Of a DNA stretch of 28,912 bases, positions 1,332 to 25,954 are shown in pieces (within the stretch, counting starts at the first letter, position 1; each line of letters begins with the position of its first letter). The stretch is from a virus (lineage: Duplodnaviria; Caudoviricetes). Below the pieces are notes generated by a model. The model ran no database searches. It was not told where the DNA came from and saw nothing but the letters and a program-made list of their open reading frames with translations. A program made the position numbers and the translations under genes. The stretch covers positions 1 to 28,912 of IMG/VR virus record IMGVR_UViG_3300017909_001121; one strand, given 5' to 3'.

Positions 1332-4300
1332 TATACTCTCCCTACCACTGCTTCAACTACACCATGGCCGGGATCCTCTTTTGCCTGTAATGCTTTACCT
1401 ATTACTGTTCCAGTTTTTGCATCATTGTTTCTAATTGCATGACCTGGAATAGTTGAACTTACAAGCAAGTCACCTTTTTGTACAATGCCCACTACCTTAA
1501 CAGGAACTCTACCCTGTAAAGCAACAGCAGTTACATTGTCGCCTTCTAGTTTACTATTCATTAAGTAACCTGGATTCTCTGAAACAACACCTGCTACTCT
1601 TGTGTCGTCTTTCATTGCAGTTGTAGTAACTTCTTTATCACCACCAAATACTAAAACTGTACCTACTTCATATTCAGCATCTGCTAGATAGTTTTCTGCC
1701 AAGTCAGCATAACGAGCCGTTGTAGCAACACCATCAAATACACCTGCGTAAATTGTGTTATAGTAGTTAGTTGCAGTACCAATATTGTATGTGTTATGTA
1801 ATCCTGGTACAAATCCTGTTGAAGTTGTTTTAAGAACTAAAGCACCATCTGAAACAAATCCAATTTCGCCTGCCGCAGTATAACCTGTGTTAGCACCTAT
1901 ACCAATACCAGTTCCGTTTGCATCAAGTTCTCCTGGTGCTTCAATAAATGAACTGTGTATCCAATCAACTGCTAATCTACTTTCACCTGCTAGTGCAGAG
2001 TTAGTTTGGAAGAATCCTTGTGTAACACCTGTGTTACCAATATTAAGACTTCCTGGAATATCAACAGTTGGTGTTACAGTACCAGCCGATGTTAAGAATA
2101 ATGCACCACCTGGTGTAGTAAATTGTACTTCAGTACCACTTGTATCTAGTATTAAGAAACTGTCTACTTTTAATCCTTGTACATCAGCATTACCACTTGC
2201 ATCTGTTTTAACAAGAGCATTAGCGGCACCTGTTGTAGAAACAGTTTCCTGTACACCGCCACCTTCACTAACAATAGTTGCAAAAGGAACTTCAGAAATA
2301 TCACCTGTGCTTGAATCTCCTGCCGCTCTACCTAGTGCAGTTCCGTCTGCGATGTTTACAATTTTATCGTAATGTAAATCACCATTTTGAATTTCAATAA
2401 ATCCGTTTGTTGATGTAAATGTAGCACTATCAAAACTTGCAACACCTAAATCATTTTGTGTTATCCCTGTTGCATTTGCTCTAGTACTTGCGGCATTAAG
2501 AGCAAGTTTAGTTTGTTGTATTCCTGCACTTGCGTTTACGTCTGCATCTACAATACTGTCTGCGGCTATTCTGTAATCAACTTCTGCCAAGTTAGCAGTT
2601 CTGCTGATCACAACATTTATATCACTTGCGGCCGCTTCAACTAGGTTGGCAAATTCGGCGTGTGGACCATCGTCTACCTGAGCAGTAACTCCACCACCTG
2701 TTGATACAACGTCTTGTGTTGTAAATGCACCAGTACCAACTGTGTAAGTTAATCTATTAAAGTTACTGCCGCCTATAGTTACGTTTTGTACATCAACGAT
2801 TGTACCAGTTGCATTAGTAAAGTTACCAGTGATGTTATCTCCAACTTGGAAGTTACCACCTTGTGCCACCAATGTATAAATTTGGTACTTGCCTGTGTGA
2901 CCAAATAAGTTATTTGCACTTAAACTATTAATTTCAACATCAACTAATTCTGCTACAGTATCACCTGCTTTAATTAATCCGTCAACATATGATTTTGTTG
3001 CCGCATCTTGACCACCAGTTGGATCAGACATATTTTCAATTCTGTATCCACCTAAGTTTAGATTTCCTGTTGCATTAGTTGTACCATCACGTGCTAGTAC
3101 ACCTGGACCAATTTGGTTTGGTACAAGGTTACCACCGTGATCAAAACCTAATCTTCTGTTTACATACCCTCTAACTGCTGATTCAACTGGTACTGTATCA
3201 GTTGCGTTGTCAGTCATGGCATCGTCAGCACTAAATTCTGCTACAACAACACCACGTTTGAATCCAATACCATCTAGGTTACTTAAGGCAATACTTGCTG
3301 AGAACGTAACTGTACCTGTACCTTGGTCAACTGTAAAGAATCTACCTACACGGAAGAAACCATCTTGGTCCGTACTTACATAGAATACTCTACCTTTATC
3401 TCTTTCATCAACTTCTCTTGCTTGGTCTTTAGGTTGTGTAGGTTGTCCTAATACAACGTTTGGATAGTTTGAAGTGTTATATCCACCAGTACCAATATCT
3501 AAGAAGTCATGTCCTGTTGCTCTACATAATGAAATGTTGACTGTAATGTTAGCACCTTCTGTTGCCGCTAAACCTGTTCTCAAAGTAATTACAGTAGTTG
3601 CATTAACCACAGAACTATTAATACCTGTGCCGCCATAACCTGCATTAATGTTTGAACCTGCAACGTCTTCGATGTTAACAATACCAAAGCCAACTTTCTG
3701 TTGATAATTTAAAACTCTATGCTGTTTACCATCATGTGTAAAAATCATATCACCGGAATTTAATTGATCCAGTGTTGCTTGGTTTAATATGCTTACTACT
3801 GCAATAGCAACGTCACCTTGTGTGTTACCTTGTGTAGTACCTGTTCCTGCGAATGCTGTACCTGTTGCGTTTGTATTATCTACAACAAGTTTAATGTATT
3901 CATATGTAGAATCAAATCTTACTAATCTTTGTTGAGCACCTAAGGCTGTACCTAATGCATTAGTAGTTCCAAAGTCAATTGTTCTGTAAACTTTGCTTGG
4001 TAACTGATCAAATATTAATGCTGAACTTGGTCTTGTGCTAACAGATTCAACTCCATCTAATTGATGCGTTAAGTTTGCTCTTAAAATTGCAATAGTGCCA
4101 TTTGGTGGAGCCGCTTTTAATCCTGTTGTACTTGTACTGTCTGTACCTGTAGTAGCAAGGTTAACTTTATAAACTGTTCCGCTTTGATAGTTTGATGAAA
4201 CAAATTCAGTTGTTGATTGTACAGTTGTAACTTCATATCTTACAATACCAGTAACACCGCCGTGATCAATTTCAATTTCTGAATTAGGCATTGGTACAAA

Positions 4301-7822: not shown

Positions 7823-8146
7823 CTAAAATCCTACTGATTCGCCGCAACCACAACTTGATGTAGATGCAGGATTGCTAATATCAAAATAAGAACCAAATAC
7901 TTCTTTTTTGTAATCTACTGTTGAGCCTATTAAGTACATAACACTCATACTGTCGATTACAAACTTTCCTTTATCTAGTTCAATGACTTCATCGTCTGCT
8001 TCAACTGAATCTACTAAACTCCAATCATATTTAAAACCTGCACACCCACCGCCTTGTAATGCTAGTTTTACTGCGGATTTTTGGTGTTCGTCTAACATAG
8101 ACTGCATTTGAGTCTTTGCACTATCTGTTAAAGTAACTACTGTCAT
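7823..8146 (-). CDS. iscA: A-type Fe-S cluster carrier, IscA/HesB family
   Basis: GGGCAGFKY and C-terminal CGCGES motifs. Start placed at the ATG at 8146 (MTVVTLT) rather than the TTG at 8161. Confidence 0.93.
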   Translation of the reverse strand: MTVVTLTDSAKTQMQSMLDEHQKSAVKLALQGGGCAGFKYDWSLVDSVEADDEVIELDKGKFVIDSMSVMYLIGSTVDYKKEVFGSYFDISNPASTSSCGCGESVGF

Positions 8147-8151
8147 ATACT

Positions 8152-8157
8152 TATTTA
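8152..8157 (-). promoter_or_regulatory. T4-type late promoter core (TAAATA), 5 nt before the iscA ATG
   Basis: Minus strand reads GGTAAATA-AGTAT-ATG, with no SD. Confidence 0.65.
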
Positions 8158-8195
8158 CCAATAATTCTATAATCTTAATGTAAATAGAAATCCAT

Positions 8196-8203
8196 TATAA
8201 ATA
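8196..8203 (+). promoter_or_regulatory. T4-type late promoter TATAAATA
   Basis: Exact T4 late consensus, followed by TGTTT-ATG (ATG at 8209). Confidence 0.7.
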
Positions 8204-8208
8204 TGTTT

Positions 8209-8499
8209 ATGTTTTTACGAACAGAACAAAAAGTACAATATTTCATGCGTAAAGGAAAAAAGGGTCAACATCACCCTTACAAACGCAAAAAAACACTATG
8301 CGTATTTGAATGTGATAACTGTCATGCTGAATTTATTAGAGATAAAGGACAAGTTGATCCTAAACGTCTAAGTGATGAATATTCTCACGTATGTCCAAAA
8401 TGTGAACCTAAAAGATTTGCACAAAAGGCCGGTGTTAAACAAAGAAAGAAATTAAATTTAACTGTGGATAGTATGGATGTTGACCTAAGTAAATTATAG
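8209..8499 (+). CDS. Small basic Zn-ribbon protein (CxxC...CxxC)
   Basis: CDNC and CPKC pairs in a Lys/Arg-rich protein. The ATG at 8203 overlaps the promoter, so 8209 is the preferred start. Confidence 0.7.
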   Translation: MFLRTEQKVQYFMRKGKKGQHHPYKRKKTLCVFECDNCHAEFIRDKGQVDPKRLSDEYSHVCPKCEPKRFAQKAGVKQRKKLNLTVDSMDVDLSKL

Positions 8500-8516
8500 G
8501 CCAACAACCTAGTTTA

Positions 8517-8693
8517 TTATTTCTCAGACTTCCAAATAGTCCAAGCGCCATAGGCAATAGCCGCATAGGCTAAGATACCTGCCAAAGGTTTTGCAATTAA
8601 TACAATTATACCAAATGCAATTAGAACTGCTCCGTCCCAGGAAGTTCTTTCTTTGAAAGCGTCAGATACCCAAGATTTGAACTTATCTATCAT
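8517..8693 (-). CDS. Small membrane protein, 58 aa (not in ORF track)
   Basis: MIDKFKSWVSDAFKERTSWDGAVLIAFGIIVLIAKPLAGILAYAAIAYGAWTIWKSEK. Strong SD AAAGGAG upstream and two hydrophobic segments. Confidence 0.75.
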   Translation of the reverse strand: MIDKFKSWVSDAFKERTSWDGAVLIAFGIIVLIAKPLAGILAYAAIAYGAWTIWKSEK

Positions 8694-8694
8694 A

Positions 8695-9246
8695 TTATTC
8701 TCCTTTGTTATATAAAGTAATTACACCACAGGCTAGACGATCTCCTGCGTTTCCGGTTCTTTTTGATTCAGCATCGCCGCCTTTACCTAGATCATCTTCA
8801 TCTTTGTGTATCACAAAAGATCTTCCAATAATAGAATTTTCTCCAGTTAATGCTATACGTTTTGCTGTGATTTGAATTTGGGCAACACCATTCTCGTCTG
8901 CCTCGATGTTACCTAAATCTCCTACATGGCCGTTTTCAAGGTCTCCATGATCTACTCCATCAGGATTAAAATGTGCGCCTGCTGACTCACATCCTTTACT
9001 TAAATCGCCATATTCGTGAACATGAAACCCGTGTAATCCTTTTTCTAATCCACTTACTTTACCGTAAACTAAAGTAGGACCACCTGGTTTCTGTGATAAT
9101 AAGATTGCACCTTTTACAGAATCACTATGCTCTAATTGGCAAATGCCATAGATAGTTTCTTGTGCTTCAGATAATTCGCTTATTCTGTTACAAGTACAGA
9201 CATCGGCTTTTGTTCTTTGACATCGTTTGAGTTCTGTAAATCGCAT
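8695..9246 (-). CDS. sodC: Cu/Zn superoxide dismutase
   Basis: HGFHVH, GCESAGAHFNP, HVGDLGNI, IIGRSFVIH, DDLGKGG and TGNAGDRLACGVI motifs. Metal ligands and disulfide cysteines are present. Confidence 0.95.
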   Translation of the reverse strand: MRFTELKRCQRTKADVCTCNRISELSEAQETIYGICQLEHSDSVKGAILLSQKPGGPTLVYGKVSGLEKGLHGFHVHEYGDLSKGCESAGAHFNPDGVDHGDLENGHVGDLGNIEADENGVAQIQITAKRIALTGENSIIGRSFVIHKDEDDLGKGGDAESKRTGNAGDRLACGVITLYNKGE

Positions 9247-10265
9247 ACTGTATTTAGCCAGTAATCATGTAGCCTAATACTAGCAAGGTTCTTTGCTTTA
9301 GACTCTACCATAATATCTGCATAATCCCAGAATTGTAATGCCCAGTCATTTACTGCATTATTCCACATAAAATCACTGTGGGCACGTAGTTTTGCTTTCT
9401 TGTAACCTTCTAATAGCAACATATCCATAGTAGGTTTTTTGTTAGCATCAAAGTCTACAAGAATATCTTCACGTGATACAGAATAATGTATTACAGGTCG
9501 TACACCACGCCACGAATCAATTATGCGAGAAAATCTATCGTCGGTTGGCTGAATATATTCACCTGTTTTGACCCAGTGATGGTGTATGTCAAGAACGAGT
9601 GCGAGTTTATGTGCAAGTTCAATACTTGCTTCGATGCCCCACGACATTTCGTCGTTTTCGATCGTAATAGTGTTTCTCGCCTCCTGAGATAGTCTTGGGT
9701 ATGCGTCGAGGATACCGGCTGGACCTTTACGGCCTGCGATGTGTACATTGATTTTAAAGTCCTGGAATTGTCTACCGTATCCCATCCACCTTGCAACGTC
9801 AACATGATATTCAAACTCCTCTATACTTCTATTTACAATATCGGGGTTGTCAGATGCAAGAACAGTAAACTGACCAGGATGCATAGACAACCGTACATCC
9901 AACTCCCTTGCACGTTCTCCGACCCTAGCGAAATTCTTTTCGCAATATGCTCTGACGTCATCTTTACGCCAAAAATAACTCCAAGTAGGCTCAGTATATA
10001 CAGGCAGAACATCACTGCCAAGCCTAACCATTCGTAACTCATTGTCTAATCCTCCTACGTACTCTATAAGGTTACCAAACGCCTTGATGTTGTGTACCAT
10101 TAGATCCCATAGGCGTTGTTCAGCAACTTCACGTGTTTGTCTATTTAACCAAGCAACAGTTGTGCAACGATTGTTCAATGGACGTTCAATCTCTTCAAGA
10201 AGTTTTTTCTTAAGAGTTTGATCTGAATGCATAAATTTACAAGCGAAACCTATACGTTTTTTCAT
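9180..10265 (-). CDS. uvsE: UV damage repair endonuclease (UVDE)
   Basis: RIGFAC, RLSMHPGQFTVL, IEND, LVLDIHHHW, HYS, RAHSD and DIMVESKAKN motifs. Confidence 0.93.
   Translation of the reverse strand: MKKRIGFACKFMHSDQTLKKKLLEEIERPLNNRCTTVAWLNRQTREVAEQRLWDLMVHNIKAFGNLIEYVGGLDNELRMVRLGSDVLPVYTEPTWSYFWRKDDVRAYCEKNFARVGERARELDVRLSMHPGQFTVLASDNPDIVNRSIEEFEYHVDVARWMGYGRQFQDFKINVHIAGRKGPAGILDAYPRLSQEARNTITIENDEMSWGIEASIELAHKLALVLDIHHHWVKTGEYIQPTDDRFSRIIDSWRGVRPVIHYSVSREDILVDFDANKKPTMDMLLLEGYKKAKLRAHSDFMWNNAVNDWALQFWDYADIMVESKAKNLASIRLHDYWLNTVCDLQNSNDVKEQKPMSVLVTE
9251..9256 (-). promoter_or_regulatory. Late promoter core TAAATA, 4 nt before the sodC ATG (inside the uvsE 3' end)
   Basis: Minus strand reads CTAAATA-CAGT-ATG, with no SD. 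Confidence 0.6.
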
Positions 10266-10927
10266 TTTGCGTTCTTCAAATCCTCGTGTATTTTGTCTGC
10301 TCTATTTTTTACTAGATCAACATACTCAGGGTTAGTACTCCATTTGCTTAATTGATCAATAAGTTTATGAATGTTTACCTTGCCTGATTTAACCTGTTGT
10401 TCACGTTCTATTCTAAATCCTTCATATGCACTATGCCTATTCACAATGTCAACCATGTCTTTAACACTTGCACATTTTGTTTTGTATTTCTTTACACCCC
10501 ATTCAGCACCTGGATTTTCTTTAGGTTTTAGTTGTGGTGTAGTAGGTGACCATGTTCTAATACCAAACAAGTTATTTGCCTCATGAGCAAACCTACTGTT
10601 ACCATAACCTGTTTCTAATACTGCCATTGCTATAATAATATCTCTTGGTACTCTTTTTTCTACTTCAATGCCTAGGTTGATGAAATCTACACATCTAGCA
10701 ACTGCTTCTATAAATTGTTTGCTATTTGAATATTCCATCGCAGGTTCTTTGAAGCCAAACTTGTTCCATTCAGCAATCATCTTGTTTTCGTTGTCCTTGT
10801 TCATTCTATCTATAACAAATTTGTTAGGATAAAACGTTGCAGTACCATATGCAATCGCAACAGATAAAGTATATATTGCAATTAGTAGGACAATTTTTTT
10901 TACTTTTGTTGTGAAGATCTTTTTCAT
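10262..10927 (-). CDS. GH73 glucosaminidase (Bax/FlgJ-like) with N-terminal membrane anchor
   Basis: AMAVLETGYGNSRFA.EANNLFGIR catalytic segment, WSTNPEY (YATDPxY-like), and a basic then hydrophobic N-terminus. Confidence 0.85.
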   Translation of the reverse strand: MKKIFTTKVKKIVLLIAIYTLSVAIAYGTATFYPNKFVIDRMNKDNENKMIAEWNKFGFKEPAMEYSNSKQFIEAVARCVDFINLGIEVEKRVPRDIIIAMAVLETGYGNSRFAHEANNLFGIRTWSPTTPQLKPKENPGAEWGVKKYKTKCASVKDMVDIVNRHSAYEGFRIEREQQVKSGKVNIHKLIDQLSKWSTNPEYVDLVKNRADKIHEDLKNAK

Positions 10928-10959
10928 ATATAATTTAAGTTAGTGTTAATCATATTAAT

Positions 10960-10988
10960 AATATAACAGAACCAAAACAAAAAGTCAA
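10960..10988 (-). promoter_or_regulatory. Sigma70-type (early) promoter
   Basis: TTGACT-17 nt-TATATT with an extended -10 TG, in an intergenic gap. Confidence 0.75.
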
Positions 10989-10992
10989 GTTT

Positions 10993-11694
10993 TTATTTCC
11001 AATTTTGCTTACACCATGGATCAATACAATCTTTTGGATTTGGATCTCCATGGAATACTGCTATACTAGTTTCGGGTAATATTTTGGGTTCGCCTGGCGT
11101 AACAAAATTCCGTTTTCCTGTGATCCTTGTCATTTCGGGTTTACCACGCATCTCCCATTTATAACTTTGGATCCATTCGTCTGGCCAAAAGTTAAAATCT
11201 GTTTTTACATTTTCAAATAACCAATCTTGATCTCCATGATATCTACTAGAATGATATTTTGGATTTTCCATAAATTTATTATAAACTTGACTGTGTTGTC
11301 CAGTGTTCCATCTTACAACACTACTGTTCATTCTTGCCCATTGACTTTGCCATAATCTATTAAAGTCTCTAATTACACAAAATTCATTAGGTTTATATTC
11401 GAACAGTTTATCTATGTTTTCAAATATAATTACATCTAGGTCAATGTATAAAATTGTACCACGTACTTCAAGGTTTGGATTGAACAGTAAAGGTTTGTAC
11501 CACCATCCATTTATCTCAGGGTGTTTAGGTAATTGACAGATTTGTATTCCTTGTTTGATTCCACTTGCATTTTCTGTAAAGCAAACGAAGTTGAAAGGAA
11601 TAGTAAGATGTCTACTGACCATGTCGTGTAGAACATTGACATATTCTGCACTATATTTGTTACCATGTTTTAAACAAATAACATGATTGCTCAT
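10993..11694 (-). CDS. GT-A fold glycosyltransferase (GT8-like)
   Basis: YIDLDVII DxD motif, NSSVV, GDQDW and AVFHGDPNP. Confidence 0.8.
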   Translation of the reverse strand: MSNHVICLKHGNKYSAEYVNVLHDMVSRHLTIPFNFVCFTENASGIKQGIQICQLPKHPEINGWWYKPLLFNPNLEVRGTILYIDLDVIIFENIDKLFEYKPNEFCVIRDFNRLWQSQWARMNSSVVRWNTGQHSQVYNKFMENPKYHSSRYHGDQDWLFENVKTDFNFWPDEWIQSYKWEMRGKPEMTRITGKRNFVTPGEPKILPETSIAVFHGDPNPKDCIDPWCKQNWK

Positions 11695-11703
11695 GGCAAC
11701 CTC

Positions 11704-12255
11704 CTACATTGATGAATTAGTTGGACCGTACGTTTTAGTAGTCATTGCTTTCATAGGATTTGCACCGAGACTTAATGTAACCCTTGGACCTAAAATTAAA
11801 GGTTTGTGATTAGTTAGTCTTGGTAAAAGTAATGCATCTCCTGTTTTACAATGATAAATCTTTTTGCTCATTGTATCAGCATCTGTAACAAGGTAAGCAG
11901 TTTCACCATAGCCTTGTATTAGCAATACAGTTTCATAATCGTTGTGTAGGTATAAACTATGATGTCCATCACTCATTGAAAAGAACAAACTTGCATTAAA
12001 GTGAGTTTCAGTTTCATGTCTATCATAGTGCTTTTGAAAATCTAACAAATATTTTTGTAGGCGTTTGTCTGATCCTACATCTGCTAGGTGTGTACTGCCT
12101 TTTGTAAATTCATCTATGTTTGATACAGCAGACTTATATTGATTAACTTCAACTAGAGTAGTAAAGTTAATATCATCTTTTGCTTCTGGAAAAGCATTTT
12201 CATAATGTGTTACTTTGAGATTTTTACGATCTTCATTTATTTGTTCCCAAATCAT
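11704..12255 (-). CDS. Cupin/JmjC-like Fe(II) oxygenase
   Basis: LHND...LLIQGYG...GDALLLPRLTNHKP...RVTLSLG gives an HxD...H triad in a double-stranded beta-helix. Confidence 0.7.
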   Translation of the reverse strand: MIWEQINEDRKNLKVTHYENAFPEAKDDINFTTLVEVNQYKSAVSNIDEFTKGSTHLADVGSDKRLQKYLLDFQKHYDRHETETHFNASLFFSMSDGHHSLYLHNDYETVLLIQGYGETAYLVTDADTMSKKIYHCKTGDALLLPRLTNHKPLILGPRVTLSLGANPMKAMTTKTYGPTNSSM

Positions 12256-12259
12256 TCAT

Positions 12260-12709
12260 TTACCTTTCGTATATTGCCGAGTTGGCTCCATGCTCTGCAC
12301 ACTCAACTCTTACAACATAACATCTATTGTTTGTTGCTTCTCTAATAAGTTTGTCTGCAAAATCAAAGGCGTGTTCGGCAAACTTCTCTGCACCTACGCC
12401 ATCCATAATAACAATACTTGCAAGATCCATTTCCTCAAGTTCTTTAAACTTTTCAATGTGAGGATCTTTTGAATCTAATACAAGTTTGTGATCAAAATTA
12501 TCTTCTAACCATTTTTTCAAAGGCTTTAGTCCACCAAAGTCTACTGCCCAATTTTTATTGTCTAATTCATCACAACCAAAAGTAAACGTAAATGCTAATG
12601 AATATCCATGAAGCAGATGACAATGTGAATGATCTGCATTTGGTTGTCTAAATACCGCACTCAACCCAATGTTGTGTCCGTAATGTTTTGTACTATAATG
12701 TTTTGCCAT
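12260..12709 (-). CDS. queD: 6-carboxy-5,6,7,8-tetrahydropterin synthase (QueD/PTPS family)
   Basis: HSHCHLLHGYS Zn/active-site motif, VDFGGLK, FDHKL, GAEKFA and C-terminal EHGANSAIY. SD AGGAG. Confidence 0.92.
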   Translation of the reverse strand: MAKHYSTKHYGHNIGLSAVFRQPNADHSHCHLLHGYSLAFTFTFGCDELDNKNWAVDFGGLKPLKKWLEDNFDHKLVLDSKDPHIEKFKELEEMDLASIVIMDGVGAEKFAEHAFDFADKLIREATNNRCYVVRVECAEHGANSAIYER

Positions 12710-12770
12710 AATTTTCTCCTATCAAAACAGCGGCAGAATTAGAAGGGTTGACGCTAAGACCTAAAAACAT
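12710..12770 (-). ncRNA. Candidate structured cis-regulatory 5' leader of queD (hairpin/pseudoknot)
   Basis: Locally GC-rich leader. Stem UAGCGUCA/UGCCGCUG, with loop CUUCUA complementary to the SD UAGGAG. Folded by eye only. Confidence 0.45.
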
Positions 12771-12776
12771 AAACTA

Positions 12777-12805
12777 ATTATACGATACTTATTCCTGTTT
12801 GTCAA
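12777..12805 (-). promoter_or_regulatory. Perfect-consensus sigma70 promoter for queD
   Basis: TTGACA (12800-12805), 17 nt spacer, TATAAT (12777-12782). Confidence 0.88.
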
Positions 12806-13409
12806 GTGTTTTATGAAAAGTATTGAAACTAATTGTAATGCGTTTTGCCGTTTTATTAGGCAAACTATAATGATACAACCAACTTGGAAACAATATTAAC
12901 ATTCCATCTCTAGGATCAAACTCCATTGTATCACTTGTAAAGTGTGTAGCAACATTGTGTATTTCAGACATACGTGGCCCTTTAATAGGACTATCAAAAA
13001 CCAAAGGCGCACTACCTGGTTCAACTATTGGATAAAATGCTCCACTTACAATAGACAGTTCGTGCCTATGACTAGCAACATAACCATTTTCACTTTGACT
13101 ATTAATCCAACTCTTGCCAATTTCTACAGGAGCCAATCCTGATTCTATACAATATTCGTCAACACGTTCTTTGATCATATTTTTTAAACCTTTAAATTCA
13201 TTTAGGTCTAGTAAGTTCATTACCTGCTGACTTGAAGTTTTACCAATACCAATATCTTGTGGCCAAGTGTCCATGTCACAGTCACTCATAAATGCTTCTA
13301 TATTGTTAAGTGTTTCGATGCTTAACTGTAACTGATGTACTTGAATGTAGGTAGGAAAAATATTATAATCTGCTTTTCTAAAAGGTCCGTCTATTATAGT
13401 CGCTTTCAT
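12789..13409 (-). CDS. Putative 2OG-Fe(II) oxygenase (TIGR02466-like)
   Basis: SWIN...HRHE...SGAFY...FPSWLYH...RITISFN. Confidence 0.85.
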   Translation of the reverse strand: MKATIIDGPFRKADYNIFPTYIQVHQLQLSIETLNNIEAFMSDCDMDTWPQDIGIGKTSSQQVMNLLDLNEFKGLKNMIKERVDEYCIESGLAPVEIGKSWINSQSENGYVASHRHELSIVSGAFYPIVEPGSAPLVFDSPIKGPRMSEIHNVATHFTSDTMEFDPRDGMLILFPSWLYHYSLPNKTAKRITISFNTFHKTLDKQE

Positions 13410-14059
13410 TTGGCATCATCACTTTCGTGTTTTTGCATACGATAGTCACGCAACGTAAGATAGTATTCTCTATCTGCGTGTCTAATAGTATTGAAACTGA
13501 TTGTGAATCTTTTCTTTGTAGGATTATTAGGTACACTATGTTTCATCCAACTAGGAAATATTACAAGTAATCCGCTTTTAGGAAAACATTCTAATTGATA
13601 CCTGTTATAGTTTGACAAGTTTATTGTATTCATATTCATAAAGTTCTGTGAATATGGATTATCAAATAGTAATGGAGAACTGCCATCATCTACATAAGGA
13701 TAGTATGCTCCACTGATTACACTTCTTTCATGTCTATGGGCGTCAACTACTCCATTCTCATAAAGTGTGTTAAACCAACTAGTGCTGATAAGTGTATAAT
13801 CAATTCCCATTTCCTGTGTATAGATATCACAACACTCTTGGATAGTTTTCCATAGATCTATTAAACGTTTATCGTTTAAGAACTGCTCGTCACCTGTGAT
13901 ATAACTGCTAGACCCTTCATGAACCAAACGATGATTGCCAGTCTTTTCCCAAGTTTCAATCATTTCTAAAACTGTTTTTTCACAAGGATGATCTTTTAAT
14001 TCAAACGTACTGATAAGACTTGGAAATGCTTGATGATGTACGTAATCAATTCCCGACAT
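13406..14059 (-). CDS. Putative 2OG-Fe(II) oxygenase (TIGR02466-like), tandem paralogue
   Basis: SWFN...HRHE...SGAYY...FPSWMKH...RFTISFN. Confidence 0.85.
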   Translation of the reverse strand: MSGIDYVHHQAFPSLISTFELKDHPCEKTVLEMIETWEKTGNHRLVHEGSSSYITGDEQFLNDKRLIDLWKTIQECCDIYTQEMGIDYTLISTSWFNTLYENGVVDAHRHERSVISGAYYPYVDDGSSPLLFDNPYSQNFMNMNTINLSNYNRYQLECFPKSGLLVIFPSWMKHSVPNNPTKKRFTISFNTIRHADREYYLTLRDYRMQKHESDDAK

Positions 14060-25877: not shown

Positions 25878-25954
25878 TGGCCGGCTCGAAGAGATTCGAA
25901 CTCCTGACCTCCAGTTCCGCAAACTGGCGTTCTATCCAACTGAACTACGAGCCG
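25878..25954 (-). tRNA. tRNA-Arg, anticodon GCG
   Basis: Full cloverleaf: acceptor CGGCTCG/CGAGCCG, D arm GTTC/GAAC with A20, anticodon arm CCAGT-TTGCGGA-ACTGG, T loop TTCGAAT, discriminator G, encoded CCA. Confidence 0.93.

Follow-up and report, generated by a model that had tools for sequence, protein, structure and literature searches.

Compact H-type pseudoknots in 5' leaders include the SAM-II and SAM-V riboswitches. The preQ1-I riboswitch (Rfam RF00522) comprises types I to III and includes the RNAs of B. subtilis, T. tengcongensis, and E. coli yhhQ. In the available parts of PMC10622847, the invariant G-C pair closing P1 is the floor of the preQ1-I pocket, and a C in L2 reads the guanine face of the ligand. 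The preQ1-II and preQ1-III pockets use a conserved C plus a U, according to the available portion of PMC11625349, and pterin binding by THF-II involves one C and one U, as given in the accessible text of PMC9881143. Metabolite riboswitches are described in the accessible part of PMC5473149 as rare, nearly absent, in phages. Here, we analyzed a conserved, covarying pseudoknot in front of a phage queD gene, for which a metabolite-sensing riboswitch that turns on translation is a candidate reading held with somewhat less than even confidence.

The window, i.e., the whole analyzed stretch of 28,912 bases from viral record IMGVR_UViG_3300017909_001121, carries genes for tail, ligase, UvdE, SOD, and 2OG-oxygenase. 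Its queD-like gene (149 amino acids, minus strand, 12260..12709) was assigned by Pfam PTPS (E = 9e-15) and phrog_2389 (E = 7e-41). The PTPS-fold product contains CHLLHGY, which fits the QueD signature CxxxHG(H) as found in the available text of PMC10516641, and scores below the NCBIfam QueD cut-off. The gene sits within a run of auxiliary genes on the minus strand (7823-14059), with two 2OG-Fe(II) oxygenases upstream; downstream of it follow a JmjC-like protein, a glycosyltransferase, a glucosaminidase, UvdE, a Cu/Zn SOD, and an Fe-S scaffold gene. The window ORFs that were scanned showed no folE, queE, or queC. Elsewhere in the window, a tRNA gene (25881-25954, minus strand; Rfam RF00005, 66 bits) is preceded by a terminator-like hairpin (26022-25997), and a near-perfect sigma-70 promoter (11/12; 25130-25102, minus strand) precedes the DNA ligase gene.

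The perfect queD promoter proposed in the initial annotation was confirmed on the minus strand. Its -35 box TTGACA (12800..12805) lies within the upstream ORF for a 2OG-Fe(II) oxygenase (13409..12789), at the 3' end of that ORF, and is separated by 17 nt from the -10 box TATAAT (12777..12782), which places the predicted transcription start at about 12770. Among 93 promoter-like sites between 7000 and 26500, it is the sole 12/12 site, and a promoter of at least 10/12 stands immediately upstream of the motif described below in 27 of 29 short-loop relatives. Two RNA-library contigs, X1 (12657-12934) and X4 (12680-12830), span the leader and extend across this promoter; they may derive from read-through or DNA and give no start position. 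No terminator-like site was found in the queD leader by the window scan. The Shine-Dalgarno sequence (SD) AGGAG is located at 12716..12720 (minus strand). The leader had also been called GC-rich, which did not hold: positions 12710-12770 have 37.7% GC versus 36.5% for the whole window, and the core at 12727-12763 alone reaches 48.6%.

For comparison, the 80 closest queD loci were sampled from viral contigs by protein similarity alone, one of them being cut at its start. A common motif was present in the leader of 69 of 79 of these loci and absent from the other 10, where model R1, a model of the motif, had no match near queD. The motif is about 36 to 50 nt long, consists of two helices only, and reads N-N-G-G, H-C-U, a variable stretch ending in U-C-R, one base, C, and C-C-N-N, followed by a loop ending in A-Y-U-C, then Y-G-C and a variable stretch. 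One helix, P1, pairs the upstream N-N-G-G with the loop C-C-N-N, and the other, P2, is the stem already noticed in the initial annotation.

In the window (all leader coordinates refer to the minus strand), this stem is indeed present, pairing 12756-12749 with 12735-12728 around a single U.C mismatch and closing a 13-nt loop. Its 5' strand, UAGCGUCA at 12749..12756, contains the invariant U12751 of the mismatch and the invariant C12750, and its 3' strand, UGCCGCUG at 12728..12735, doubles as the 5' arm of a competing hairpin that spans both the SD and the start codon. P1 is formed by (U)AGG at 12760..12763 and CCU(U) at 12743..12746. It has 3 bp here (12762-12760 with 12746-12744), U12763 lying opposite U12743, versus 4 to 5 bp in most relatives, and its 3' strand overlaps the start of the anti-SD segment 12745-12740. 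L1 is U-C-U (12757..12759), as defined from alignment A1, a set of 45 distinct variants picked by hand, and from 202 variants; C12758 is invariant in A1, the following U occurs in 202/202 variants, and the first position is A, U, or C. Based on A1, L2 (12747..12748) comprises the variable A12748 and the invariant unpaired C12747, its register being set by a G-C to C-G swap in relative L066. L3, CUAAUUC at 12736..12742, is of the 7-nt form and ends in the conserved A-Y-U-C. Across the family, L3 measures 11 nt in 167 and 7 nt in 35 of the 202 variants. The short form, the window included, goes together with a P1 of 3 to 4 bp, and GG-H-C-U is still conserved within this short-loop subgroup. The 11-nt form, carried by most relatives, is A-rich. 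Three A positions are conserved in the long form and two in the short one, and L3 ends in AUUC or ACUC in 230/230 cases, of which YUC was set by the descriptor and the A was free.

Both helices covary. In A1, 88.5% of cells were paired and 10 of 12 pairs showed two-sided change, versus just 36 to 58% of cells paired in slid-partner controls. P1 alone occurs as GAGG/CCUC, GCGG/CCGC, GUGG/CCAC, GUCG/CGAC, CCGG/CCGG, and AAGG/CCUU. On a tree of 53 distinct leaders selected by protein alone, 44 compensatory changes were counted over P1 and P2, against a mean of 3.4 (maximum, 15) with deranged partners; noise in the QueD trees, on which the length of L3 changes 7 to 18 times, inflates the change counts and makes them upper estimates. 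A P1 pair that had been left free in the scan pattern was matched in 107/107 unique metagenome hits and in 13/21 mostly chance genome hits. A1 contains 10 invariant columns, including the P1-closing G-C pair (45/45); five are not Watson-Crick paired, to which the U of the U.C mismatch is added. The invariant bases gather at the helix junction in a ligand-pocket-like manner. The leader is thus a strongly covarying H-type pseudoknot and a member of an uncatalogued queD-linked family. A compact H-type pseudoknot had been predicted, and this part of the proposal stood; its topology did not, since the loop pairs with the upstream AGG (12762-12760). A search of the window against Rfam returned nothing at gathering score and three irrelevant hits at E ≤ 10, and six related loci gave 0 hits at E ≤ 1.

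Folding energy did not distinguish the leader from shuffled sequences (z = +1.2, no excess). The stem alone amounts to -4.3 kcal/mol, and thermodynamic support for it was rejected (z = +0.3 to +1.3 versus shuffles). It is therefore conservation and covariation, not folding energy, that place the element beyond chance.

The second helix of the initial annotation, between CUUCUA (12745-12740) and UAGGAG (12721-12716), exists as a complementarity in the window. As a conserved helix, it was not upheld, the conserved partner of the loop being the AGG upstream. Across 202 variants, the SD lies anywhere from 1 to 27 nt past P2 and is not covered by the knot. In the 186 variants with GGAG (16/202 without GGAG were set aside), the 6-bp loop-SD register was complete in 37, and five pairs were formed in 70. 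Of the two helices that were to covary among homologous queD leaders, P2 did so, and loop-SD showed no two-sided change. In 23 short-loop leaders, 92.8% of loop-SD cells were paired with zero two-sided changes, and 93.5% of P1 cells were paired with one; this subgroup is too uniform to decide alone, and the whole family decides for P1. The loop-SD pseudoknot was consequently rejected as the conserved fold on account of the variable SD distance, the incomplete register, and the lack of two-sided change. Duplex strength differs between subgroups: loop:SD is the stronger duplex compared to loop:P1 in 35/35 short-loop variants, the window's own subgroup, and P1 is the better duplex in 39/39 variants of the CCGC-loop subgroup, where the loop pairs poorly with the SD. 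We read the loop-SD pairing as a possible alternative, competing state; in the short-loop subgroup, it may represent an OFF state.

In total, 214 unique leaders from uncultured large phages were gathered, and for one pattern about 2200 stored metagenome stretches were estimated. QueD was encoded directly downstream in 172/240 hits of two loose patterns, the remainder of which are mostly GC-rich chance matches. The proportion was 112/123 in a set of metagenome hits, with eight further cases judged by eye to be QueD starts cut by the contig end, and 118/120 for a third pattern. Motif-linked QueD proteins span identities of 93% to 32%. In one contig (L371), the motif precedes a tandem PTPS protein of 306 amino acids that is of the same type as in Vibrio phage nt-1 and shares about 21% identity with the window QueD. 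Of 26 large records, 23 gave a single strong match to model R1, and in the three others queD lacks the motif. No R1 match was located upstream of folE in 20 folE-bearing records.

Outside this group of phages, R1 matches at 11 annotated cultured-phage queD loci, chosen out of 181 record hits (127 + 54), never fell below E = 3.5 (BUCT-ZZ01, Motura, Phosso, IME-SM1, Iggy, PhiXhv-15, nt-1, GR7B, Ahp1, ART, and HD01). Upstream of its queD, Achromobacter phage Motura has a different strong hairpin (L465:3942-3968) within a 67-nt gap. A search of 185,579 prokaryote genomes gave 24 hits with a pattern that covers only long-L3 variants with an A-U junction, so bacterial absence is not proved thereby. 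Nineteen of these hits lacked outer P2 and QueD, and the five genuine ones were all on contigs of metagenome-assembled genomes (MAGs) with phage-type QueD downstream (one contig-end case by eye). These five contigs bear bacterial labels (L481, L494, L484, L495, and L496) and are probably misbinned phage DNA; the neighbors in L481 hit PHROGs of the window. The motif was found here only in phage-type DNA, and no genome of an isolate yielded it. No description of it was encountered in the literature by title and the start of the abstract, a search that mostly left subscription journals outside its coverage. Supplementary files 3 to 6 of Fremin 2023, within the available part of PMC10690425, hold no PTPS or QueD label, and two candidates there precede folE. 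The motif could be an unnamed entry in the candidate sets of Weinberg 2017 or Fremin 2023.

A few copies of the motif, most of them duplicates that include the promoter and often with internal promoter and SD, also precede unrelated genes (L018, L209, L284, L292, L301, L616, and L538; L209 and L621 are the same contig). The second copy in L538 lacks the outer P2 pairs. In L018, the whole leader is duplicated (2132-2204 and 2929-3000) around an inserted 236-amino-acid gene, like a regulatory cassette seeding insertions. The subgroup of the latter copy has a sigma-70-like promoter inside the motif in 43/55 leaders, with the -35 in L3 and an extended -10 in the loop of a downstream hairpin. A late-promoter-like word, TAA(A/G)TA, occurs just upstream of the motif, likewise in 43/55; it contains a stop codon, and its control is weak. 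With this arrangement, the switch would be absent from early transcripts and present, with its knot, in late ones.

Five records that were at least 90% complete (222 to 356 kb) were inspected for the 7-deazaguanine pathway. All five encode folE and queD, and T4-like replication genes were seen in the near-complete records examined. QueE-like genes were detected by PHROG in four of the five, the fifth weakly. A full-length QueC match was found in none of the five, so that preQ0 and preQ1 are perhaps not made by these phages. Pfam TGT was likewise negative in all five (0/5), as was the Motura TGT query (0/5, a search without positive control), and a homologue of nt-1 ORF390, presumably DpdA2, was present in 1/5. 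Individually, G002, G003, G007, and G009 have folE, queD, and a QueE-like gene, and the searches run for QueC, TGT, and an nt-1-type transglycosylase did not find these. HIT genes lie near folE in G002, G003, and G007, and phosphoribosyltransferase genes do so in G002, G007, and G009. In G003, a second PTPS-fold gene (L454:9855-10394) follows directly after queD, in which R replaces the catalytic C (HRSLLHGY). The gene lacks the DpdL motif described in the literature and could be a paralogue with another activity.

The minimum free energy fold of the window leader is incompatible with P2. In this predicted OFF hairpin (12704..12735), the P2 3' strand pairs over the start codon and the SD remains in the loop, with UGCCG (12735-12731) opposite UGGCA (12708-12704) and GUUUU (12728-12724) opposite AAAAU (12715-12711). 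The stretch, which was picked post hoc, folds with -7.7 kcal/mol (z = -2.45; 1/200 shuffles equal). Similar pairing recurs in the family: an anti-start CAU within or just after the P2 3' strand was found in 120/212 leaders versus 27/227 background windows, and the flanking pairs hold in 105 to 109 of the 120. The window leader itself has no CAU. The flanks track codon 2, as in AGUCAU/AUGACU, GCCCAU/AUGGGA, and UGCCAU/AUGGCA. A leader's own anti-start duplex had -7.57 kcal/mol versus -6.70 for swaps within subgroups (0/5000), and own duplexes beat swapped ones overall as well (0/5000). The within-group signal stems from two of the five subgroups; the remaining three show none or the opposite. 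By tree-aware covariation, this helix is supported at one position only (14 changes), where a non-partner column scores 12.

Opening of the ribosome-binding site (RBS) was less informative. Forming the knot gained 2.0 to 5.9 kcal/mol in all five subgroups before the shuffled control; a shuffled pseudoknot segment gave a similar or larger gain, and opening energy was dropped as evidence for an ON switch. For the long forms, the gain was 3.53 (real) versus 2.53 kcal/mol (shuffled), the real one being higher in 120/182, and for the short forms it was 2.46 versus 3.89 kcal/mol, the real one being higher in 5/28. In the window, knot formation that kept G12728 in P2 lowered the opening energy from 5.1 to 1.9 kcal/mol; with G12728 free, it dropped from 5.1 to 4.4 kcal/mol at 37°C, with no gain at 15 to 25°C; the gain of the window hence hinges on one terminal pair. 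One subgroup retains an SD hairpin in both states, with an opening energy of 9.35 kcal/mol when the knot is formed. Judged by the general features of riboswitches, the structure and the gene link are present, and a mutually exclusive platform is favored by the anti-start data, not by the shuffled control. Since the start codon offers the P2 3' strand an alternative partner, the knot is suggested to be the ON state, and we consider it fairly probable that it acts as such on queD translation.

We consider the chances somewhat better than even that the candidate element is a metabolite-binding riboswitch. This idea had already been put forward, and it is retained as the leading reading of an RNA that is conserved, covarying, and tied to queD; the accompanying feedback-OFF logic is not, as the loop pairs upstream and the SD lies outside the knot. 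Without ligand, the P2 3' strand would pair over the SD and start codon, and queD would be poorly translated; in the short-loop subgroup, the loop CUUCU would perhaps also pair over the SD. A guanine-like face of the ligand would pair with C12747 between the G-C floor of P1 and the first P2 pair, thereby locking the pseudoknot and pulling the P2 3' strand off the ribosome site. C12747 is a candidate specificity base by analogy with the L2 C of preQ1-I, and it is this invariant unpaired C above a G-C floor that suggests a guanine-like face. The loss of the preQ1-reading U and A suggests a ligand other than preQ1, and ON logic before queD would fit 7,8-dihydroneopterin triphosphate, the substrate of QueD, better than its product. 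By such analogy, dihydroneopterin triphosphate or a related guanine-faced base is the most likely ligand; the assignment to the QueD substrate or a related dihydropterin is the weakest step of the scheme. QueD would then be made only when the FolE product accumulates, at the entry to the phage 7-deazaguanine pathway. The full version, a phage-only class on a preQ1-I scaffold that senses dihydroneopterin triphosphate or another pathway intermediate for which no RNA sensor is known and switches QueD on, is speculative and less likely than not.

The same conservation could instead mark a binding site for a protein, with the pseudoknot or the competing hairpin serving autogenous control by QueD or recognition by another phage protein and no small molecule involved. 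T4-type phages autoregulate through RNA operators, and the single strong match per genome, located before queD and not folE, is what autoregulation expects; the rarity of riboswitches in phages, as stated in the available part of PMC5473149, points the same way. However, the same invariant nucleotides stand before QueDs that are 93% to 32% identical and before the tandem-domain QueD of about 21% identity, and with a partner so divergent the RNA would be expected to drift. Moreover, the clustering of invariant bases around the helix junction resembles a ligand pocket, and the SD is left uncovered by the knot itself, so we regard a protein site as unlikely. Less probable still is a structure that works independently of any ligand, either as a kinetic or temperature-set translational valve or as a 5' stabilizer that protects late transcripts or sets the QueD dose. 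It would agree with the temperature dependence of the predicted RBS opening, with the internal promoter and the upstream late-promoter-like word (43/55 each), by which only some transcripts would carry the knot, and with the motif-plus-promoter copies before unrelated genes. It does not explain, though, why unpaired bases and the U.C mismatch are invariant, why L3 keeps a fixed length, and why the motif is linked almost exclusively to QueD, even among subfamilies of that protein that are very distant.

Equally improbable in our estimate is that a pathway product (CDG, preQ0, preQ1, or 7-deazaguanine) acts on a feedback OFF riboswitch, as the initial annotation proposed. A ligand could stabilize the loop-SD knot in the short-loop subgroup, where loop:SD beats loop:P1 in 35/35 (92.8% paired), or the P1/P2 knot could stack on an SD hairpin, and one subgroup does have such a hairpin directly after P2 that survives knot formation. 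The closest scaffold is preQ1-I, the preQ1 modes tabulated in the accessible portion of PMC11625349 are SD occlusion, termination, or docking, and the energy test for an ON switch failed its shuffled control. Against this weigh the loop-SD helix without two-sided change, the CCGC-loop variants that pair poorly with the SD (P1 better in 39/39 of that subgroup), the SD distance of 1 to 27 nt, and the GG-H-C-U that stays conserved even in the short-loop subgroup. In addition, the preQ1-reading U and A are not conserved, and the five near-complete genomes gave no full-length QueC match. The 10 of 79 close queD relatives lacking the motif speak against the preferred ON riboswitch.

If the preferred reading, a riboswitch that turns queD translation on, is true, phages control 7-deazaguanine synthesis via metabolite sensing, and jumbo phages use substrate feed-forward to gate what this synthesis draws from the GTP/folate branch point. 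A class confined to phages and common in aquatic jumbo phages would overturn the reported near-absence of such switches from phages.

Among the known systems, preQ1-II and preQ1-III resemble the motif in a conserved C and U after the first stem, which in L1 of the motif (C-U-U) could read a guanine-like ligand as in their pocket. They are, however, larger HLout pseudoknots with extra hairpins that act as OFF switches before queT, whereas the motif has two helices only. THF-II (the folE motif) is alike in sensing pterins beside the same pathway entry with one C and one U, as far as the available text of PMC9881143 describes it, but is a two-helix rod without pseudoknot and an OFF switch before folE, and the motif has no Rfam match to it. 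Unlike SAM-II and SAM-V, the motif shows no link to SAM genes, its SD is not part of P2, and again no Rfam match was obtained. The motif is thus not preQ1-II/III, THF-II, or SAM-II/V.

The likeness to preQ1-I goes further. Both are H-type pseudoknots of the order P1-L1-P2-L2-L3, with both helices covarying here, and share a 5-bp P1 that ends in an invariant G-C pair, a short L1, and an unpaired C directly preceding the 3' strand of P1 (C12747, invariant in A1). The long forms have an A-rich L3, and a gene of the queuosine/7-deazaguanine pathway lies downstream. Compared by eye with the B. subtilis construct in the available part of PMC10639078, long forms such as L070 agree in both P1 strands and in the first part of L3. 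On the other hand, the L1 U of preQ1-I is not conserved in the motif (A in 123, U in 49, and C in 30 of 202); the window has U at this position after P1, though the family does not keep it. The L3 of preQ1-I ends in a ligand-reading A next to P2, whereas that of the motif ends in A-Y-U-C. The motif's P2 usually has 5 to 9 bp with an invariant U.C mismatch versus 4 bp, and its L2 is one base plus C. The P2 of preQ1-I takes in part of the SD or governs a terminator and its wiring is OFF, whereas the motif keeps the SD outside the knot and has a predicted ON wiring, occurs in phage-type contigs only, and has no Rfam hit. By the L1 U, the L3 A, the SD or terminator in P2, and the Rfam match, the motif is not a preQ1-I member. 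The initial annotation had set the leader apart from the preQ1-I consensus, which is right as to membership and not as to resemblance, since the long-loop relatives copy the scaffold, A-rich L3 included. If the proposed mechanism is true, the motif is a 36- to 50-nt aptamer in which ligand and direction have changed on the preQ1-I fold.
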